From: Candidatus Microgenomates bacterium
Lineage (GTDB): Bacteria; Patescibacteriota; Microgenomatia; UBA1400; UBA12108
Assembly (NCBI GenBank): GCA_003576945.1
Contig: QEVC01000004.1
Coordinates: 1-53,708 of the forward strand
Reading direction: 5' to 3'
DNA: 53,708 bases
The notes under the pieces were generated by a model. The model searched no databases. It was not told the DNA's origin and saw only the letters and a program-made list of their open reading frames with translations. The position numbers and the translations under genes were made by a program. Shown here one piece after another: positions 34,234 to 40,035 of this stretch (positions within the stretch are counted from its first letter, which is position 1; each line of letters starts with the position of its first letter).

Positions 34234-34341
34234 ACTCCGATTATGATAGCACCCGAGGCTGTTATTGGCTACGCTTGCCGAAAGCAAATTTCTGTTGATC
34301 CCTATATCGCCTAACGTATGGTGTGTATGCGAGGTTTTGCT

Positions 34342-34560
34342 TTAAATTTTGAGAAATTCCTCGACTGTCATCTCACATTGTCTGAGAATTGCGCGTAAGG
34401 CACCTTTCGGGATATCTCGGCTATGCAAAGCTACCGTAGACGCACGACCATCCGGATGAATAAGTCTAGCGTGACTACCAGTTTGCCGTGAAATCTTAAA
34501 TCCAGCTTTTTCTAACTTCTTGACTACTGCCAGTGGTTTGAGAACTGGGAGTTTGGGCAT
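34342..34560 (-). CDS. hicA: HicA-family toxin (mRNA interferase)
   Basis: LEKAGF..RQTGSH...H..DIPKGALRAILRQ; 72 aa. Confidence 0.9.
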   Translation of the reverse strand: MPKLPVLKPLAVVKKLEKAGFKISRQTGSHARLIHPDGRASTVALHSRDIPKGALRAILRQCEMTVEEFLKI

Positions 34561-34561
34561 A

Positions 34562-34849
34562 CTAAACGGCAAATCTGGTATAGGGAGTAACCTGGAAAGG
34601 TACCTGGGTATTAGTCACCAATTCTTCGTTAGGCTTATCAACGGGAATTTCTTTATGTTCTTTTTGCAAACACTCGACATGAAAGGCGATAGTGCTCTGG
34701 ATATTATCGAGTGCTTCTTGAGGGGTAGGCCCATCGTCGACCACACCTAGAGTGGGACAATATGCAACATAGCACGCTTTTTTGCTACCCAGGCTTTTAT
34801 CAAGGCGTAATATTACACGATAGTCGAGAACGGTCTTTTGTTGTTTCAT
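34562..34849 (-). CDS. hicB: HicB-family antitoxin (short form)
   Basis: YVAYCPTLGVVDDGPTPQEALDNIQSTI...EIP. Start moved to ATG 34849, behind extended -10 TGCTATACT. Confidence 0.85.
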   Translation of the reverse strand: MKQQKTVLDYRVILRLDKSLGSKKACYVAYCPTLGVVDDGPTPQEALDNIQSTIAFHVECLQKEHKEIPVDKPNEELVTNTQVPFQVTPYTRFAV

Positions 34850-35029
34850 AGTACTTGGAGTATAGCAAAAATCGGGAAAATATAAAGGCAAATTGTGGGC
34901 GAACGACTGCAAGGAGTGGAGCCGCATACACGCTAGTTAGGTGACCCGAGCGGAATGTGGCAAAATGCTCCCCTGCCACACGAAGTGAGAGTGCAACGGG
35001 GTGCGAGTGAAACGAGCAAGTTACAAACT

Positions 35030-35488
35030 TTACGATCTATTTATTAGCTCGGACAATGGCGGAACGCCATAGTCCTTTCGTTCTTGGTCTGATGTTTTGG
35101 GATCGTAGTCGCAGATTATTCCTGTGGCATTATTAAATTGGGTTCCGAATTTCTGTTTTTTACCTTGAGATACGAGCCACCTATCCAGACTGGCGGCATA
35201 CAACCACTTCGTTACGTTGGAACCCAATTTAATTGCCTTTTGAGCGTACTCATGCGCCAGTTTGTATGTGGCGGGAACATCAGACCATGAATGCATGAGC
35301 AATAAACAGGCATAATGACAATTCCATATTTCATTTTCATCTAGTGTTGGAAGAATTGTATTTAACACCTCTTGCCGATGAATATCGTTTTGTTTGAGTT
35401 GATCCTCGGATAATTTGCCTTCGTCAAATAGCTGACGATCACTTTTATCACTTAAATACAATTCTTCCAACTGTAAATGGATTGTCAT
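35030..35488 (-). CDS. Hypothetical helical protein (DUF6624-like C-terminal motif), cassette gene
   Basis: 152-aa ORF with LYAASLDRWLVSQGKKQKFGTQF...ERKDYGVPPL; family recalled, not verified. Confidence 0.6.
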   Translation of the reverse strand: MTIHLQLEELYLSDKSDRQLFDEGKLSEDQLKQNDIHRQEVLNTILPTLDENEIWNCHYACLLLMHSWSDVPATYKLAHEYAQKAIKLGSNVTKWLYAASLDRWLVSQGKKQKFGTQFNNATGIICDYDPKTSDQERKDYGVPPLSELINRS

Positions 35489-35510
35489 TATGAGTAAATT
35501 TTGTAATTAC

Positions 35511-35627
35511 GTCTAACGTATGGTGTGTATCTGATGTTTGGCGGACTTATAATGGATTATACTCACAAATCCGCCTGATATGGGAGAACGAGTGCAACGA
35601 AGTGAACCAGATACACGCTAGTTCTAC
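35511..35627 (-). repeat. attC-like site (117 bp, no gene in loop)
   Basis: GTCTAAC-gta-TGGTGTGTATCTG ... CAGATACACGCTA-GTTCTAC; inner GGCGGA/TCCGCC stem. Confidence 0.75.
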
Positions 35628-35722
35628 GACCCGAATGGAGCGAAGTATAATCTGAAAGCTCTTAATACTCCGCGGAATGAGAGTGCAACGCGATCGAGGA
35701 GCGTAGCGACGAAGACGTAATG

Positions 35723-35935
35723 CTACTCTGAGGAAGAACCTTCTTCATGCTCTAGCCAAGGGCCATCTACAATTATCTTGCGAAGGATCCTCATTTTATC
35801 TACGGAGAGTCTTTCTAACTGTTTCAGTTGAGATTTAAACTCCTCGTTAGTCGCTTCACCTTGGTATCTAACATAATCCTGAGCAAGTCTTCCCTCCTTG
35901 GCTAGAGACTCAGCTATGTCCATTAAGTTTGCCAT
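35723..35935 (-). CDS. Small hypothetical helical protein, cassette gene
   Basis: 70-aa ORF with upstream AAAGGAG; fills the space between two sites. Confidence 0.7.
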   Translation of the reverse strand: MANLMDIAESLAKEGRLAQDYVRYQGEATNEEFKSQLKQLERLSVDKMRILRKIIVDGPWLEHEEGSSSE

Positions 35936-35967
35936 ATTTCTTACTCCTTTCTGAGTAGCATTATGTC

Positions 35968-36409
35968 GCCTAACGTACAGCGTGTATGCGAGGTTATTAA
36001 GTTTTTGATACCTCCTCTAATATTTGCCTAAGTTTTCTAGATTCTTTCATGGCCTCCTCCACTTTTTCTTGAGTTATGGATTTGCTAAGCAGGATTGGAA
36101 TAATGCGAGACTGGTGAGCGATGAAACTATCGAGAGGCATAAGGGCACCGCCATGTTTTGACCAAGCCTCCTTTGCACCCTCCCAATTTTTGATTGAGGC
36201 ATCGATCACCAAAGTCTCTCGCAACTTCTTAAATTCATAATGCTTAGAAATCCATACCGTGATAATTGAGGCCATGAAACCTATGAGCGAACCTCCCAAT
36301 CCTGCGATTAATGTAGTAAGCTCTGGTGTCATGATGATAATTGTATCAAAAACTAAATAATCTGGGCGAACGACTGCAAGGAGTGGAGCCGCATACACGC
36401 TAGTTAGAT
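35968..36409 (-). repeat. Expanded attC-like site (442 bp) enclosing a 111-aa ORF
   Basis: GCCTAAC-gta-CAGCGTGTATGCG (35968-35990) pairs with CGCATACACGCTA-GTTAGAT (36390-36409). Confidence 0.7.
35997..36332 (-). CDS. Hypothetical protein with N-terminal TM helix
   Basis: MTPELTTLIAGLGGSLIGFMASIITVWI. Start moved to ATG 36332, 7 nt after extended -10 TGATACAAT. Confidence 0.7.
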   Translation of the reverse strand: MTPELTTLIAGLGGSLIGFMASIITVWISKHYEFKKLRETLVIDASIKNWEGAKEAWSKHGGALMPLDSFIAHQSRIIPILLSKSITQEKVEEAMKESRKLRQILEEVSKT

Positions 36410-36507
36410 GACCTGAGCGCGAGGTGATATGATCCCCCGATCACCTCGAGCGAGAGTGCAACGCGGTGCGGAGTGAAACGGAGCAAGTTAGCAACTCTCA
36501 CTAAAAA

Positions 36508-36852
36508 TTAGTTAATCTTTTCGAAGCCGTTGAAGTGAGGCTTATCGTCGTTGAATACTTCTATAACTTTATATCTTCCTTTTGTCCAGACCTCGCCAGC
36601 TTCTAGATAGTGAGTAGCGTCGAGGATGATAATACTAGCTTTGGGACGGGATAAAACTTGATTGCCTTGTGTCTCTAGGAGCGGAAGTTCGCCGTGCAAC
36701 CAATACAACCTCTGATCTTTTTTGAGAAAGGAATAGGTTTGGCCAACCTCTAACTTTTCGGGGATACATTCCTCTATTTTTCGGTTGCCGGCATGAAATT
36801 CCGCGACATTGCGTAAAGCGAGGTCTGGATTGTATTCAACGACGATACCCAT
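36508..36852 (-). CDS. Hypothetical protein, cassette gene
   Basis: 114-aa ORF; TATAAT just upstream; enclosed by a perfect 14-bp inverted repeat. Confidence 0.75.
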   Translation of the reverse strand: MGIVVEYNPDLALRNVAEFHAGNRKIEECIPEKLEVGQTYSFLKKDQRLYWLHGELPLLETQGNQVLSRPKASIIILDATHYLEAGEVWTKGRYKVIEVFNDDKPHFNGFEKIN

Positions 36853-36898
36853 ATATGTTGATTATAACCCTTCCTTGATTGTGAGAGTTGCTAATTTC

Positions 36899-37018
36899 AT
36901 CTAACGGGCACTGTATATCTGACGTTGGACGGGTTGATAATTGAGTTTATTGTACCCTAACCCGTCCAATGTGGGTCGAAGGAGTGCAACGACTGAGCCA
37001 GATATACAGTAGTTGTAC
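36899..37018 (-). repeat. attC-like site (120 bp, no gene in loop)
   Basis: ATCTAAC-ggg-CACTGTATATCTG ... CAGATATACAGTA-GTTGTAC; inner 14-bp stem at 36922-36935/36959-36972. Confidence 0.75.
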
Positions 37019-37248
37019 GACCCGAAGCCCACACGCTAAAATCACTCAACTTAAAGCGGGTGGGCTGAGAGTGCAACGAGGTCGAACGACTGCAAGGAGT
37101 GAGATGTCTATTTGTTCCTTAATTCAGTTCGCGCGCGCTTTTACATGTACCCTGTATTCATTTTCAGCTCAGTGTAGAGGGGTTAGGGGTGAATACACTG
37201 AGCTGAATGCTCCCCTAGTCTCCAACTCTGGTGGATATGTCCTATAAC

Positions 37249-37277
37249 TTGACAAAAAGCTATATATCTGGTATGCT
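37249..37277 (+). promoter_or_regulatory. Sigma70 promoter TTGACA-17-TATGCT with extended TG
   Basis: Consensus -35 and 17-bp spacer; both boxes are conserved in copy 2 while the spacer varies. Confidence 0.8.
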
Positions 37278-37284
37278 ACCAAAT

Positions 37285-37475
37285 GTTGTAGTAGTCTGCC
37301 ATGCTGCAAATAGATTGCTATTTCCCAGCGTGAATGAACCAACTATAACTGCACCTTAAAATGCGGAAGTTATCTCCTTTGCCAAGTGGGTAATTTTGTG
37401 GATATTGTCGTGTCTACAAAAATACCCATTTGGGTAGAAAAACGTTTTTCTATTCTGTTCTACAAAAGGAGATAT
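37285..37475 (+). ncRNA. Putative structured leader RNA, copy 1
   Basis: Nested stems GTTGTAGT/ACTATAAC, CATGCTG/CAGCGTG and AAATAG/CTATTT; long hairpin 37382-37433; anti-SD TATCTCCTTT. Confidence 0.55.
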
Positions 37476-37478
37476 ACC

Positions 37479-38063
37479 ATGTTCAAGAAAGCCCCCCGTA
37501 AGGAAGATGGATTGGATCTGTTTGCTCGCGCACTCGGAGCCAAATCCGGATCGGACGCCATTCTCAGACAAGAAGCTGACGGTCAACGCTCGTTCGTAGG
37601 TAGCGACACGCTCCCAACCGAAATGAGTGCTGATGATCGCACTGCTCTCGAAGCCGCAGGCGTTGTGTTCGGCGAAGTTGTGCCAGGCGATGACTTGTTC
37701 CAGTATGTTCAGCTCCCCGCTGGATGGACCAAGCGTAGCACGAGCCACTCGATGCACAATGACCTTCTCGATGAGAAAGGTCGCAAGCGTGCAGGCATTT
37801 TCTACAAAGCCGCGTTCTACGACCGCAACGCTCACCTCTACTGTGTGCGCCGCTTCGGCATCAACCTGGACTATGACCAGCTCGAGAATGGGATTGTGCT
37901 TGTGCAGGTGACTGACTGCGATGAAGTGGTTTACTCCACTAATCCTGTTCCGTTCGAAAAGAGCGAAGAGCGCCTTGCACGTGAACAGGCATTCGAAGTC
38001 GCCAAGTCCTGGCTGAACAGCAACTATCCCGAATGGGAAAACGCCGCCGCCTACTGGGACTAA
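37479..38063 (+). CDS. Hypothetical, probably phage-type protein (cargo 1, 194 aa)
   Basis: Strong SD AAAAGGAG. LPAGW...HSMH..LLDEKGRKRAGIFYKAAFYDR is recalled from phage hypothetical proteins (unverified). GC is higher than in the flanks. Confidence 0.75.
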   Translation: MFKKAPRKEDGLDLFARALGAKSGSDAILRQEADGQRSFVGSDTLPTEMSADDRTALEAAGVVFGEVVPGDDLFQYVQLPAGWTKRSTSHSMHNDLLDEKGRKRAGIFYKAAFYDRNAHLYCVRRFGINLDYDQLENGIVLVQVTDCDEVVYSTNPVPFEKSEERLAREQAFEVAKSWLNSNYPEWENAAAYWD

Positions 38064-38095
38064 TTCCTCACCTTCCGCAAGGTGCAAAACGCTCG

Positions 38096-38148
38096 ACCCC
38101 TCCGGTCACGTCCACGTAAGTGGAAAGATTGGAGGGGTGTTTTGTATC
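38096..38148 (+). terminator. Terminator-like hairpin, copy 1
   Basis: ACCCCTCC...GGAGGGGT followed by GTTTTGTAT. Confidence 0.55.
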
Positions 38149-38352
38149 TATTAACTTTCGCTATACAAAGTGGCAATTTTAGCGCTTTAATTAACAAAAG
38201 TCGCCGTAGGCGACACCTCATCCCCCTCTAAAAATAATATACCTTTACATGTACTCTGTATTCCATTTCAGCTCAGTGTAGAGGGGTTAGGGGTGAATAC
38301 ACTGAGCTGAATGCTACCCATACCATCACCTCTGGTGGATATGTCCTATAAC

Positions 38353-38381
38353 TTGACAAATGACTACATATCTGGTATGCT
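38353..38381 (+). promoter_or_regulatory. Sigma70 promoter TTGACA-17-TATGCT
   Basis: Same as 37249-37277, offset by 1104 bp. Confidence 0.8.
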
Positions 38382-38388
38382 ACGAGAT

Positions 38389-38570
38389 GTTGTAGTAGTC
38401 TGCCATGCTGCAAATAGTTTGCTATTTCCCAGCGTGAAAGAACCCACTATAACTGCACATTAAAATGCGGAAGTTATCTCCTTCTATTGTGGGTAGCACT
38501 TTTGGTATCAAAAGTGGTACTAAGTGTGCTACTCACAAGTAGTGAAACCCCAACCCACCCAAAAGGAGTA
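38389..38570 (+). ncRNA. Putative structured leader RNA, copy 2
   Basis: Same stems as copy 1; a hairpin of different sequence at the equivalent place (38487-38538); CTCCTT anti-SD. Confidence 0.55.
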
Positions 38571-38577
38571 CTGAAAA

Positions 38578-38886
38578 ATGAACGATAAAGTTATTACCCT
38601 CCCGAGCGCTGATGAAATGATTGCTCGCCTGATGAAAGTTCAGGATGATGAACTCGCCCAGTCACTGTACAGGAACGTTGCGCAGCGTGCTGGCGAGGAG
38701 AAGGTTGCGGCTGGCATCATTATGATGTTCAGTCTTGGCATCTACGATGTCTGCCAGGGATACCCTCCCATGATGCAGAACCTTCTCTCCTACAACATCC
38801 CCGCGTGGGTCGACGCCCTTGTTGATGACAAGGAAGTTGCCGATGCGGCTAAGGCTTTCTGGAAGGAAGCTACGAGCAAGAAATAA
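38578..38886 (+). CDS. Hypothetical protein (cargo 2, 102 aa)
   Basis: SD AAAAGGAG at 38561-38568; no similarity to cargo 1. Confidence 0.75.
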   Translation: MNDKVITLPSADEMIARLMKVQDDELAQSLYRNVAQRAGEEKVAAGIIMMFSLGIYDVCQGYPPMMQNLLSYNIPAWVDALVDDKEVADAAKAFWKEATSKK

Positions 38887-38984
38887 GTCTTCGCGAGGTC
38901 AAATATTGAAACCACTAGCTGGGCGACGTAAGTCGACGGGTTACTCCGTTATCAGTTATACTTCCGCAAAAGAAGTGCAGACAT

Positions 38985-39054
38985 CCCCTCCGAATAGTCG
39001 GAAATTGTTGCGTAAGTTGCAACGTTTTTGATTATAGGAGGGGTGTTTTGTATC
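38985..39054 (+). terminator. Terminator-like hairpin, copy 2
   Basis: CCCCTCC...GGAGGGG followed by TGTTTTGTATC. Confidence 0.55.
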
Positions 39055-39168
39055 ACTTTAGTTAATGAAAGTCGCCGTAGGCGACACCTCATCCCCCTCT
39101 AAAAATAATATACCTTTACATGTAATGTAAAAGCGCGCGCGAACATATAAATAGTACAAATAGATATC

Positions 39169-39207
39169 GTACAACTAGTGTGTATGCGAATAATGTTCGC
39201 ATACACA
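39169..39207 (-). other. attI-like recombination site
   Basis: Core GTTGTAC on - strand, next to a perfect 12-bp hairpin TGTGTATGCGAA-taatg-TTCGCATACACA, 21 bp upstream of the integrase start. Confidence 0.65.
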
Positions 39208-39228
39208 GACATTTGGTAGAATATTAGC

Positions 39229-40035
39229 ATGTGGAAAGAACGATTACAACTATATATGCAGGCTCGTGCATACAGCAGACGAACCATATCTGCGTATATT
39301 GATTCTGTCGATCGGATAGTCAAGAAAACGAGAAAAGATCCAGCTAATATAGATGAGCAAACGCTAGAAAAATACCTGAGCCAACTATACAGCTCTGGCA
39401 TGTCGCCCTATACCCTCAACCAGCACCACATGGCGTTAAAATTACTTAAGACTGCGGTACTTGGTCAGTCGTGGGACCCTAAGTTTGGCTATGCCAAAAG
39501 ACCAAAGAAAATCCCCGTTACACTAACTAAGAATGAGATCTCAAAATTAATAGATTCGACTGCTAATCCAAAACATCAGTTAATACTGGCTCTCGCATAT
39601 GGCGCAGGCCTACGGGTCAGCGAAATAATCGCCCTTAAAGTAATGGATATCGATTTTGAGAACATGCGGGTTGTAGTACGGAGTGGCAAAGGACAAAAAG
39701 ATCGAACGACAGTCCTCCCTGATAAGTTAGTCACCACTCTCAATTCGTATCTCGCAGGACGCAAAAAAGACGACCATGTCTTTTTGAGTGAGCGAGGTGG
39801 GACACTAACTACCAGGACGCTACAAGCGATATTTGCTAAATCGCTAAATCGTGCCGCGATTAATAAGGCCGCCACCTTTCACAGTCTCAGACACAGTTTT
39901 GCCACTCACCTCCTTGAGCAGGGTGTAGATATTAGGTATATCCAGACACTGCTCGGCCATGCTAGTATTACGACAACTCAGATTTATACTCATGTTGCGA
40001 GTACTGCACTACATAATATCAGGAGCCCATTATGA
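39229..40035 (+). CDS. IntI-like tyrosine recombinase (268 aa) lacking the integron-specific insert
   Basis: YGAGLRVSE (R), GKGQKDR (K), HSLRHSFATHLLE (HxxR), LLGH, TTQIYTHV (Y); C-terminal RSPL as in IntI. Confidence 0.9.
   Translation: MWKERLQLYMQARAYSRRTISAYIDSVDRIVKKTRKDPANIDEQTLEKYLSQLYSSGMSPYTLNQHHMALKLLKTAVLGQSWDPKFGYAKRPKKIPVTLTKNEISKLIDSTANPKHQLILALAYGAGLRVSEIIALKVMDIDFENMRVVVRSGKGQKDRTTVLPDKLVTTLNSYLAGRKKDDHVFLSERGGTLTTRTLQAIFAKSLNRAAINKAATFHSLRHSFATHLLEQGVDIRYIQTLLGHASITTTQIYTHVASTALHNIRSPL

Follow-up and report, generated by a model that had tools for sequence, protein, structure and literature searches.

The hok mRNAs are characterised by a 5'-3' fold-back and a sequestered ribosome site, the full-length molecule being locked and processing activating it. 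Pairing of the 5' UTR with the 3' UTR also occurs in the hbs mRNA of Bacillus subtilis, whose mature form is 5'-processed in a host with RNase Y and RNase J, as described in the available part of Braun, Durand and Condon (2017; PMC5737220), and intramolecular RNase III duplexes of 10-36 bp, spanning up to 505 nt, are reported for B. subtilis mRNAs in the available part of Taggart et al. (2025; PMC11780869). With regard to DNA, the PeSL cassettes of T4-type phages are described, in the part of the paper available, as conserved modules of a promoter and a stem-loop terminator, placed around small genes of unknown function, by which modular shuffling is brought about (Arbiol et al., 2010; PMC2839356). 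Literature searches yielded no description of integrons or of structured UTRs in CPR bacteria.

The two units described here lie in a window (the whole stretch of DNA analysed, 53,708 nt) of Candidatus Microgenomates bacterium, a member of the CPR (contig QEVC01000004.1 of assembly GCA_003576945.1). They are tandem copies that share a 240-nt repeat with 91% identity (37140-37379 vs. 38244-38483), and their ORFs are unrelated (Table 1). In both, a strong sigma-70-type promoter is followed by a 5' UTR about 190 nt long, by a G+C-rich ORF that is exchangeable and by a short 3' UTR with an intrinsic terminator. The extended promoter motif TCCTATAACTTGACA was found genome-wide at these two sites only. 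We propose, with a probability of about one half, that each copy is a self-contained expression cassette whose non-coding parts form a portable mRNA chassis, which would keep translation off until it is cut by a nuclease and which resembles the 5'/3'-UTR interaction of hbs.

Table 1. Coordinates of the features of both units and of their surroundings in the window.
Feature	Position	Strand	Details
Left arm of 44-nt inverted repeat (palindromic insertion site flanking both units jointly)	37103-37146		80% complementary to 39125-39168
Junction decamer TTTACATGTA	37140-37149		again at 38244-38253 and 39115-39124, the unit boundaries
Cassette 5'-end hairpin hp, unit 1	37163-37207	+	14-bp stem, 17-nt G-rich loop
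Promoter, unit 1	37249-37277	+	TTGACA, 17 nt, TG-extended TATGCT; 10/12, top score of region
Leader domain (type A), unit 1	37285-37349	+	stacked stem-loop, from folds
Bipartite 5' arm, unit 1	37350-37369	+	7 bp, 5-nt A-rich bulge, 8 bp
Anti-Shine-Dalgarno stretch, unit 1	37371-37380	+	pairs with 37465-37474 (AAAGGAGATA); -14.5 kcal/mol, 1/300 shuffles
Long 5'-UTR hairpin, unit 1	37382-37433	+	23 bp, from fold
Cargo ORF 1	37479-38063	+	194 aa; GC 0.55 vs. 0.44 for the window
3' arm, unit 1	38072-38086	+	complement of 5' arm, fold, RNAduplex
Intrinsic terminator, unit 1	38096-38148	+	12-bp G+C stem, inner GUAA-loop hairpin, U tract
Cassette 3' end, hairpin hp2 and C-rich tail	38200-38243		hp2 (38200-38214) terminator-like on - strand; second copy at 39071-39114
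Hairpin hp, unit 2	38267-38311	+	DNA fold z -4.5
Promoter, unit 2	38353-38381	+	same type as unit 1
Leader domain, unit 2	38389-38453	+	stacked stem-loop, from folds
Bipartite 5' arm, unit 2	38453-38474	+	complement and fold
Anti-Shine-Dalgarno stretch, unit 2	38478-38483	+	pairs with 38563-38568; 22/300 shuffles
Long 5'-UTR hairpin, unit 2	38484-38542	+	differs from unit 1 hairpin; from fold
Cargo ORF 2	38578-38886	+	102 aa; GC 0.51
3' arm, unit 2	38960-38980	+	GUAA-loop hairpin 38924-38935 upstream; complement, fold, RNAduplex
Intrinsic terminator, unit 2	38981-39056	+	from whole-transcript fold
Right arm of 44-nt inverted repeat	39125-39168		complement of left arm
Tyrosine recombinase (XerA/integron-integrase-like)	39229-40035	+	268 aa

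The resemblance to hbs lies in the 5'/3'-UTR pairing and, putatively, in a mature form that is 5'-processed. As in the hbs host, RNase Y (TIGR03319, 532.9 bits) and RNase J (TIGR00649, 421.9 bits), both above their cut-offs, are encoded in this genome, which also encodes RNase III. In contrast to hbs, as far as the available part of its description goes, the chassis is portable, around unrelated ORFs on mobile cassettes, and it has a duplex in two parts whose junction motif is invariant, cleavage being here a putative step; furthermore, the closing helix is predicted to stack on an anti-Shine-Dalgarno (anti-SD) helix, so that the closed form should be untranslatable. Promoter and terminator modules around small genes are shared with the PeSL cassettes, but these are phage DNA motifs for which neither 5'-3' pairing nor an anti-SD is described in the part of the paper available (PMC2839356). 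Membership of that family was rejected, as the chassis lies in a bacterial chromosome and no credible copy of it was found on viral contigs: the promoter-plus-junction pattern had no match there, and the chassis was present in none of the 25 matches of the junction pattern and none of the six of the promoter pattern on inspection.

Complementary arms and the anti-Shine-Dalgarno helix

An earlier note on this DNA had described nested 5'/3' complements around each ORF, and all eight motifs were found where it had placed them, amounting to 15 bp per copy. In unit 1, TGCACCT (37350-37356) and TGCGGAAG (37362-37369) pair with CTTCCGCA (38072-38079) and AGGTGCA (38080-38086), just downstream of the stop codon (38061-38063); in unit 2, CTGCAC (38453-38458) and TGCGGAAGT (38466-38474) pair with ACTTCCGCA (38960-38968) and GTGCAG (38975-38980). 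The arms lie on opposite sides of the ORF, 700 nt (unit 1) and 485 nt (unit 2) from each other, between the strong promoter and the intrinsic terminator. When the whole predicted transcripts (37285-38150 and 38389-39056) were folded, the closing helix appeared in the MFE and centroid structures of both, with z-scores of -4.67 (unit 1) and -8.98 (unit 2) compared to 20 shuffles each. The probability of such pairing by chance was assayed with RNAduplex and 300 shuffles, a 5' window of 48 nt being paired with the 110 nt that follow the stop codon; the 5' window had to be fixed beforehand for the scoring to be informative, as duplex or local-alignment scores gave too much noise when whole UTRs were used. 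The energy in unit 1 (-24.2 kcal/mol) was equalled by 21 of the 300 shuffles and that in unit 2 (-25.5 kcal/mol) by 10. Thus, each copy in the window is only modestly above chance, and the weight rests on the relatives.

In these, the pairing is kept around unrelated ORFs, partly with other letters, as RNAduplex and the comparison of the arms revealed. The closing helix was tested in 14 units, each with its own 3' region against 300 shuffles, in statistics that are overstated because the units are kin. The own pairing was matched by 0-1 shuffles in L018, L014, L032, L090 and L020 (none at all in L014, L018 and L032), by 2-10 in L085, L084, L079, L003 and unit 2, and by 19-21 in unit 1, L081 and L042; in L039, where the promoter is present, no 5'-3' pairing was detected by RNAduplex (189/300). 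Complementarity of about 14-19 bp was found, by reading and RNAduplex, in 13 of the 14 units, which makes these hbs-type if that is taken as at least ~14 bp between the 5' UTR and the 3' UTR of one mRNA. The leader of L014 is of the type found in the window and its arm letters differ (13 bp), L018 and L032 have arms of unrelated sequence (14 and 15 bp) whose own pairs score above every non-own pair, and L003 shows an A-U to U-A swap inside the inner helix, which is down to 5-6 bp in L084, L079 and L042. As the arm letters are common to most units, truly independent compensations are few. The motif GCAC.TT.A in the 5' arm is invariant in 12/12 aligned 5' UTRs, beyond what pairing needs.

The units are mosaic: modules for the leader, the arm, the hairpin, the 3' UTR and the terminator are found again around different ORFs in varying combinations. 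Leader types vary among units with a common core, and a homologue of ORF 1 is carried by another leader type (L085). Searches for further units had little yield: an order-wide BLAST with the 5' UTR gave, beyond G001, G011 and G019, weak matches to the promoter only or inside unrelated genes; homologues of ORF 1 were present in only four of the 401 genomes of the class, three of them distant; and no closing helix was found in G094, a match to the strict pattern (z -0.7). The same pattern also matched G161, where no ORF was called.

Directly beside the closing helix, a stretch complementary to the Shine-Dalgarno (SD) pairs with it in 10/10 units, with 0-7 of 300 shuffles doing as well in seven of them, and the register of the anti-SD covaries with the letters after the SD. 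In the predicted folds, this helix and the long 5'-UTR hairpin are stacked on the closing helix. For the long hairpin, RNAalifold on seven sequences gave 24 pairs, three of them compensatory, with many G-U/G-C alternations that are compatible with the sense strand only. An A/U-rich hairpin precedes the SD, and among the hairpins of the 3' UTRs there are GUAA and UUCG tetraloops. Neither the anti-SD helix nor the cassette context at the DNA level had been noticed in the earlier note.

The upstream domain, previously described as having three stems, was predicted to fold as one stacked stem-loop domain of 65 nt, with no compensatory pair among the 21 predicted and three wobble-compatible one-sided changes in five sequences. 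Competition of the terminator for the 3' arm, also proposed before, would be minor, since the two overlap by at most ~3 nt. An Rfam scan of the whole window gave no match at the gathering score, in agreement with the former failure to recognise any family, and at E <= 5 the sole match in 36850-39250 was to a miRNA model (E 0.52).

Cassette context and cargo

Both units are cassettes with hairpin ends that sit in a palindromic site, next to an Xer-type recombinase and an attC-like array. The arms of the inverted repeat covary between genomes in five of the seven relatives compared, and 7/24 family genomes each have a single copy of the junction with the right palindrome half; all seven of these sites were occupied, and no unoccupied insertion site was found in the 24 genomes. 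Hairpin hp is conserved in 15/24 family genomes, ahead of unrelated interiors, and in relatives hp2 plus tail likewise close cassettes whose interiors are unrelated. Neither L014 nor L020 belongs to a hairpin-ended cassette.

The recombinase, one of three tyrosine recombinases in the genome, passed the cut-off of the XerA-type model NF040815 (225.7 bits, cut-off 220); its identity as IntI was rejected, as it reached 215.3 bits in two stretches against TIGR02249 (cut-off 265). The neighbouring array, in which imperfect palindromes alternate with small ORFs and a tyrosine recombinase lies alongside, resembles integron cassettes and Xer-type integron-like systems. In contrast to integron cassettes, the units bring their own promoter and terminators, and their end structures are unlike those of the neighbouring array, which lies on the opposite strand. 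An attC site was also discarded for the arms, which straddle the ORF instead of being adjacent palindrome halves and lie away from the homology breakpoints.

No Pfam, NCBIfam or PHROG family was found for either cargo ORF. ORF 1 has 542 homologues, all hypothetical, and its structural model (pLDDT 92.3) gave no fold match in the PDB at E <= 0.001; the Atlas gave no lead on cargo function. Among the cargo ORFs of 10 relatives scanned, nine were without a Pfam family and one had a DnaJ-type zinc finger.

RNA contigs and rival explanations

Both units were present in RNA libraries, as a check of transcription in metatranscriptomes revealed. Six metatranscriptome runs contained 0.40-0.55 of the sampled words, and DNA runs of two of these studies 0.82-0.91. 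RNA contigs without any differing letter were compared over 36400-39600 in four runs from four studies. Those on unit 1 started at 37421, 37434, 37435 and 37439 and ended at 38051-38123 (depth 11-346), and those on unit 2 started at 38539-38551 and ended at 38773-39015 (depth 2.7-61). All eight thus began 40-60 nt upstream of the AUG, at or just past the 3' base of the long hairpin, although contigs cannot prove RNA ends, and none included the leader, the 5' arm or the anti-SD. At the contig level, the 3' arm was crossed into the terminator in 3/4 runs for unit 1 and passed in 2/4 for unit 2. The only other contig in the region covered the recombinase (depth 2.4); leader, hp, tail and neighbouring cassettes were without RNA cover, an absence that is no proof.

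As the RNA contigs of four studies lack leader and 5' arm, a stable closed scaffold is not the abundant form of the RNA; a closed form, should there be one, is a precursor. The earlier idea of a structured RNA with a swappable ORF holds for the complements, the unrelated cargo, the presence in RNA and the lack of an Rfam match, but not for covariation of the leader, for an abundant closed form or for the analogy with ORFs in intron or HEARO loops. There was no match to a ribozyme or guide RNA, and no splicing or circularisation joint in the RNA contigs of the four runs, which drop rare forms. A HEARO/OMEGA or intron-borne ORF was rejected, as no IscB, TnpB, reverse transcriptase or homing endonuclease ORF was present in the cargo scanned.

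Contigs that begin 40-60 nt before the AUG, without the leader, would also be expected if an internal promoter in the 5' UTR started the ORF RNA, in which case the arms would never meet in one molecule and would be inherited scaffold pieces without a pairing role. A weak promoter-like site (9/12) at 37379-37408 could indeed start the RNA of unit 1, but none is predicted for unit 2, and the -35-like letters are not kept among seven aligned relatives, whereas the upstream promoter scores best of the region, with strict conservation of its extended motif. As the arms of L014, L018 and L032 also remain complementary with unrelated letters, we regard an internal promoter as unlikely. The arms of the units could instead act in folded single-stranded DNA, where boxes and unpaired spacer would come together like attC R/L boxes, for the neighbouring recombinase to swap the ORF; each arm has two parts and a spacer that stays unpaired, mosaicism is seen in the cargo, and the units lie between the attC-like array and an Xer/IntI-like recombinase. 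Such a role in DNA is nevertheless quite unlikely, because the breakpoints between shared and unshared sequence lie away from the arms: unit 1 and L020 share the whole stretch from arm to SD, and about 45 nt of 3' UTR upstream of the arm are common to unit 2 and L081. Moreover, the cassettes own distinct end hairpins and a junction decamer, L014 and L020 lie outside such cassettes, and G-U pairs and GNRA/UUCG loops indicate a sense-strand RNA.

An RNA role of the closing helix could also be that of an RNase III processing stem, like those of rRNA or intervening sequences, both strands being cut to release the ORF. Its 14-19 bp, the RNase III encoded in the genome and the long-range RNase III duplexes of 10-36 bp reported for B. 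subtilis mRNAs in the available part of PMC11780869, which are likewise intramolecular, would fit, but the RNA contigs do not end in the arms: they traverse the 3' arm in 3/4 runs (unit 1) and 2/4 (unit 2), and none starts in the 5' arm. Cutting of this helix is thus very unlikely, and the 23-24-bp hairpin of the 5' UTR is a better RNase III candidate than the closing duplex. A sensor of the riboswitch or RNA thermometer kind, with an anti-SD helix opened by ligand or temperature, would account for the ribosome site sequestered in 10/10 units, for the A/U-rich hairpin ahead of the SD and for the invariance of GCAC.TT.A beyond pairing; however, Rfam gave no match and the leader types differ among units with the same core, so that no conserved aptamer is apparent, and we consider a sensor highly improbable. 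The hok/sok systems share a 5'-3' pairing and hidden ribosome site, with the full-length mRNA proposed to be locked and processing to activate it, but a toxin mRNA under the control of an antisense RNA is hardly credible here, since the cargo proteins (77-228 aa) are diverse and mostly soluble, ORFs of 194 and 102 aa are not small hydrophobic toxins, and no antisense promoter was found within the units.

Proposed mechanism and significance

In the nuclease-gated chassis that we favour, the bipartite 5' arm (14-19 bp in total) of the primary transcript would pair just upstream of the terminator, placing the ORF in a closed loop, and the anti-SD stretch, stacked directly on the closing helix, would pair with the ribosome binding site, the 23-24-bp hairpin being located between the two. 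With the closing and anti-SD:SD helices formed, the prediction for the full-length RNA is a closed molecule that is not translated. A cut at or just past the long hairpin, for which RNase III and RNase Y are candidate endonucleases, might then leave a message without anti-SD and 5' arm, with subsequent trimming by RNase J. The product would be the abundant form of the metatranscriptomes, whose start lies about 40 nt upstream of the AUG, whose ribosome site is free and which retains 3' arm and terminator. Formation of the closing helix in vivo, processing as the origin of the contigs' 5' boundary and activation of translation by this processing are what we infer.

The chassis would travel with mobile DNA. 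A tentative and rather doubtful extension is that the units belong to a gene-capture system of Microgenomates (CPR), in which cassettes would be complete natural expression vectors, with promoter, two-way terminators and a nuclease-gated closed-loop chassis, which an Xer-type recombinase would insert into a palindromic site, at its tip, and silencing new, possibly harmful genes until RNA processing; the released leader of about 150 nt may even be a stable regulatory RNA.

Long-range 5'-3' pairing is known from single bacterial genes, whereas here many unrelated genes are set in one and the same frame, which is carried by mobile cassettes. Public metatranscriptomes hold the RNAs, and raw reads can decide between a primary start and a processed end. 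If the proposal is true, the chassis would be a natural, standardised module for expression and insulation in bacteria that do not yet grow in pure culture and about whose gene regulation hardly anything is known. Synthetic biology may also find a compact part in it, and it would offer a testable model for the post-transcriptional control of horizontally acquired genes in ultra-small bacteria.

Pairing around the cargo genes

The units form a tandem pair, with 240 nt repeated at 91% identity, and enclose unrelated ORFs of 194 versus 102 aa. The nested complements that the earlier note had reported around these ORFs were all recovered on reading the window sequence, at the positions listed in the Table; in unit 1 a distance of 9 nt takes the reader from the stop codon to the first base of the 3' arm. 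When a 48-nt 5' window was compared by RNAduplex with the 110 nt past the stop, duplexes of -24.2 kcal/mol (unit 1) and -25.5 kcal/mol (unit 2) were obtained, with 21/300 and 10/300 shuffles as good, so the pairing of each window copy by itself is only modestly above chance. The closing helix between the arms appears in the minimum-energy and centroid structures of both whole predicted transcripts, whose fold z-scores were -4.67 and -8.98, respectively (20 shuffles each).

Coordinates of features in the window and of promoter-headed gene rows in two related loci (L032, L057)
Feature	Position	Strand	Remark
Integron-like array	34289-37100	-	at least four cassettes; small ORFs; upstream of the units
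HicA-family toxin gene	34342-34572	-	Pfam E 3.8e-18; inside array
Upstream partner ORF of HicA	34562-34927	-	no Pfam family; inside array
Inverted repeat, left arm	37103-37146		44 nt
Junction decamer	37140-37149		repeats directly after the C-rich tail
hp (5'-end hairpin)	37163-37207		14 bp
Unit 1 promoter	37249-37277		TTGACA, 17 nt, TG-extended TATGCT
Unit 1 leader	37285-37349		stacked stem-loop, 65 nt
Unit 1 5' arm, bipartite	37350-37369		TGCACCT (37350-37356), TGCGGAAG (37362-37369)
Unit 1 anti-Shine-Dalgarno (anti-SD)	37371-37380		one nt past 5' arm
Unit 1 long hairpin	37382-37433		23 bp
Unit 1 A/U-rich hairpin	37434-37453		
Unit 1 anti-SD partner	37465-37474		AAAGGAGATA
Unit 1 ORF	37479-38063		
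Unit 1 3' arm	38072-38086		CTTCCGCA (38072-38079), AGGTGCA (38080-38086); nested complements of the 5' arm boxes
Unit 1 intrinsic terminator	38096-38148		
hp2, terminator-like hairpin	38200-38214	-	
C-rich tail	38215-38243		
Unit 2 5' arm boxes	38453-38458, 38466-38474		CTGCAC, TGCGGAAGT
Unit 2 ORF	38578-38886		
Unit 2 3' arm boxes	38960-38968, 38975-38980		ACTTCCGCA, GTGCAG; pair with TGCGGAAGT, CTGCAC
Inverted repeat, right arm	39125-39168		44 nt
Tyrosine recombinase gene	39229-40035	+	268 aa; overlaps trmD start at 40032
Promoter-headed gene row, L032	6047-7190		tandem
Promoter-headed gene row, L057	369-1089	-	tandem

The same comparison, own 3' region against 300 shuffles, was made for 14 units with both ends available. 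The own pairing was matched by 0-1 shuffles in the related loci L018, L014, L032, L090 and L020, by 2-10 in L085, L084, L079, L003 and unit 2, and by a modest 19-21 in unit 1, L081 and L042; L039 gave no pairing signal in this duplex test (189/300 as good). L014 has the leader type of the window, yet its arms form 13 base pairs from other letters, and arms of unrelated letters form 14 bp, including one G-U, in L018 and 15 bp in L032, the own-pair scores of these two exceeding every non-own pair. An A-U to U-A swap lies within the inner helix of L003. In three type-C units the inner helix has shrunk to 5-6 bp and the outer one has 10 bp with one constant mismatch, the total still reaching 14-19 bp. 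Pairing around different cargo genes, as noted earlier, is kept in relatives, in some with other letters, although the independent events are few, because most units have identical arm letters and all are relatives.

An element absent from the earlier note is the anti-SD stretch. Its helix stacks on the closing helix in the predicted fold, which would place the start codon at a three-way junction. The anti-SD:SD helix was found in 10/10 units, matched by 0-7/300 shuffles in seven of them, and its register tracks the letters past the SD, which vary among units. The long hairpin (24 pairs, n = 7 sequences) showed three compensatory changes and many G-U/G-C and U-G/C-G alternations, which on the other strand would give A-C mismatches. 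GUAA tetraloops cap hairpins of the 3' UTR and terminator, and a UUCG or UUUC loop is present in the 3' UTR of L018 and L032. At the arm, GCAC.TT.A was invariant in all 12 aligned 5' UTRs, preceded by leaders of at least four types, a conservation that exceeds what pairing needs. None of the 21 predicted pairs of the type-A leader domain showed compensatory change, and its structure remains a prediction.

RNA libraries and cargo genes

Sampled words from 37140-39124 were present at 0.40-0.55 in six metatranscriptome runs, next to absent in four further RNA runs, and at 0.82-0.93 in DNA runs, including most of the words in DNA runs from two of the contig-source studies. Contigs from four RNA runs of four studies were aligned to 36400-39600. 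Those of unit 1 ran from 37421, 37434, 37435 or 37439 to 38051-38123 (depths 64, 23.5, 346 and 11.5) and those of unit 2 from 38539-38551 to 38773-39015 (depths 2.7-61), without a differing letter. The sole other contig in this span lay on the recombinase gene (depth 2.4); the RNA libraries thus contain both units at much greater depth than the sequence around them, a contrast that speaks against carried-over DNA. No contig in these runs showed a joint of the kind that splicing or circularisation would leave.

All eight contigs that fall on the units lack the leader, 5' arm and anti-SD; they start at, or at most a dozen nt from, the long hairpin's 3' base (37433, 38542). With differences between the two leaders spaced at under 31 nt, a 31-mer assembly should not be interrupted by the repeat. 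Because a contig start is no proof of an RNA end, these starts are only a hint, one that favours 5' shortening of the abundant RNA.

The 14 cargo ORFs (the two of the window and those of L003, L014, L018, L020, L032, L039, L042, L079, L081, L084, L085 and L090) are richer in G+C (0.47-0.55; third position 0.46-0.67) than their host loci (0.34-0.51) and stay in this range independently of the locus value; their 5' UTRs have 0.27-0.45. The family of the unit 1 ORF numbers at least 542 hypothetical proteins, those named being exclusively from Patescibacteria records, mostly contigs of 1-2 kb; the structure model of the ORF is confident (pLDDT 92.3) but matched no PDB fold at E <= 0.001.

Cassette ends, insertion site and distribution

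The unit pair is enclosed by inverted repeat arms, and the junction decamer marks both outer ends of the pair as well as the boundary between its members. In five of seven relatives inspected, the same end hairpins bound a cassette that lies inside the same kind of palindrome, the arms varying in letters between genomes while keeping complementarity. A long palindrome is interrupted at its centre by the insertion, and 10 nt are duplicated (37103-37149, 39115-39168); such palindrome-centred cassettes, seen in the window, L004, L005, L007, L008 and L009, suggest a hairpin-type attachment site. The junction with the right palindrome half occurs once per genome in 7/24 family genomes, and no unoccupied site was found among the 24. 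About 8 nt of the G-rich loop of hp (37177-37193) match the C-rich tail (38222-38233) as complements, and loop and tail would adjoin in a circular cassette.

The recombinase downstream of the units is recognised by an XerA-type NCBIfam model but not by the IntI model; its gene adjoins the cassette site in genomes G000 and G001 (L003), and the window genome (CPR, 0.83 Mb, 98% complete) has three tyrosine recombinases in all, the other two on other contigs. The array fills the stretch between a UDP-glucose dehydrogenase gene and the site where the units are inserted; its spacers, imperfect palindromes of repeat families D2 and D3, have attC-like folds, and in two cases ORFs lie between two palindrome halves. 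Toxin-antitoxin pairs are often found inside integron arrays.

The hp is common, being matched in 15/24 family genomes, mostly at query positions 1-76 only, and hp, hp2 and tail surround quite different interiors in relatives. The chassis, searched as promoter, 75-115 nt and junction motif, is rarer and patchy (5/286 genomes of the order and 13 metagenome contigs, with no match in viral contigs); inspection found it in 8 of the 13, three of these being truncated or cut by the contig end. In genome G019 two copies lie outside hp/tail cassettes, one downstream of a ribosomal-protein-like gene, so chassis and cassette ends are separable modules. The promoter motif without the rest of the chassis precedes many small G+C-rich genes of the order.

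Elsewhere in the order, the extended promoter motif (TCCTATAACTTGACA type) also heads tandem rows of such genes, and in L032 the next promoter directly follows the 15-bp pairing. In L080 (50-400) a copy with promoter, leader, arm, anti-SD and hairpin has its ORF apparently replaced by unrelated opposite-strand sequence, and this unit may have decayed or been interrupted.

Reading of the chassis

The units, whose anatomy, conservation and transcription are observed, are best read as carrying a portable mRNA chassis, with a probability of about 0.5 for the chassis at the RNA level. The 5'-3' helix would close the full-length transcript, and its ribosome site would be paired; cleavage within or just past the long hairpin would strip the anti-SD and 5' arm, and the product would be the translatable form seen in the RNA libraries. 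We infer this cut and its effect, and hold the nuclease-gating step more tentatively than the chassis itself. RNase III, RNase Y and RNase J are encoded in the genome; of these, RNase III could plausibly act on the 23-24-bp hairpin and RNase Y on the G-rich/A-rich stretch past it.

The earlier note had likened the units to ORFs in intron or HEARO loops. The complements it rested on are real and kept around unrelated ORFs, but the likeness is not supported, as the defining ORFs of such elements are absent; that it recognised no known family agrees with an Rfam scan, which gave no family membership. The arms are unlikely to be sites of site-specific exchange, the shared-sequence breakpoints between units lying elsewhere, and the mosaic of modules fits ordinary recombination at conserved non-coding segments.

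Fold-back inhibition is known from hok-type mRNAs. Closest in mechanism to the portable mRNA chassis is the Bacillus subtilis hbs mRNA, in which a 14-bp 5'/3'-UTR interaction influences how RNase Y cuts a structured leader (PMC5737220); B. subtilis mRNAs are also described to form long-range RNase III duplexes (PMC11780869). In genome role the nearest counterpart is the PeSL type of promoter/stem-loop cassette, from T4-type phages (PMC2839356). Exact-word searches of a limited literature collection turned up no account of a chassis like this one, nor of integron-like systems in CPR. The kind of control is itself known; in the present reading, long-range UTR pairing and ribosome-site masking would be combined and made portable on mobile cassettes.
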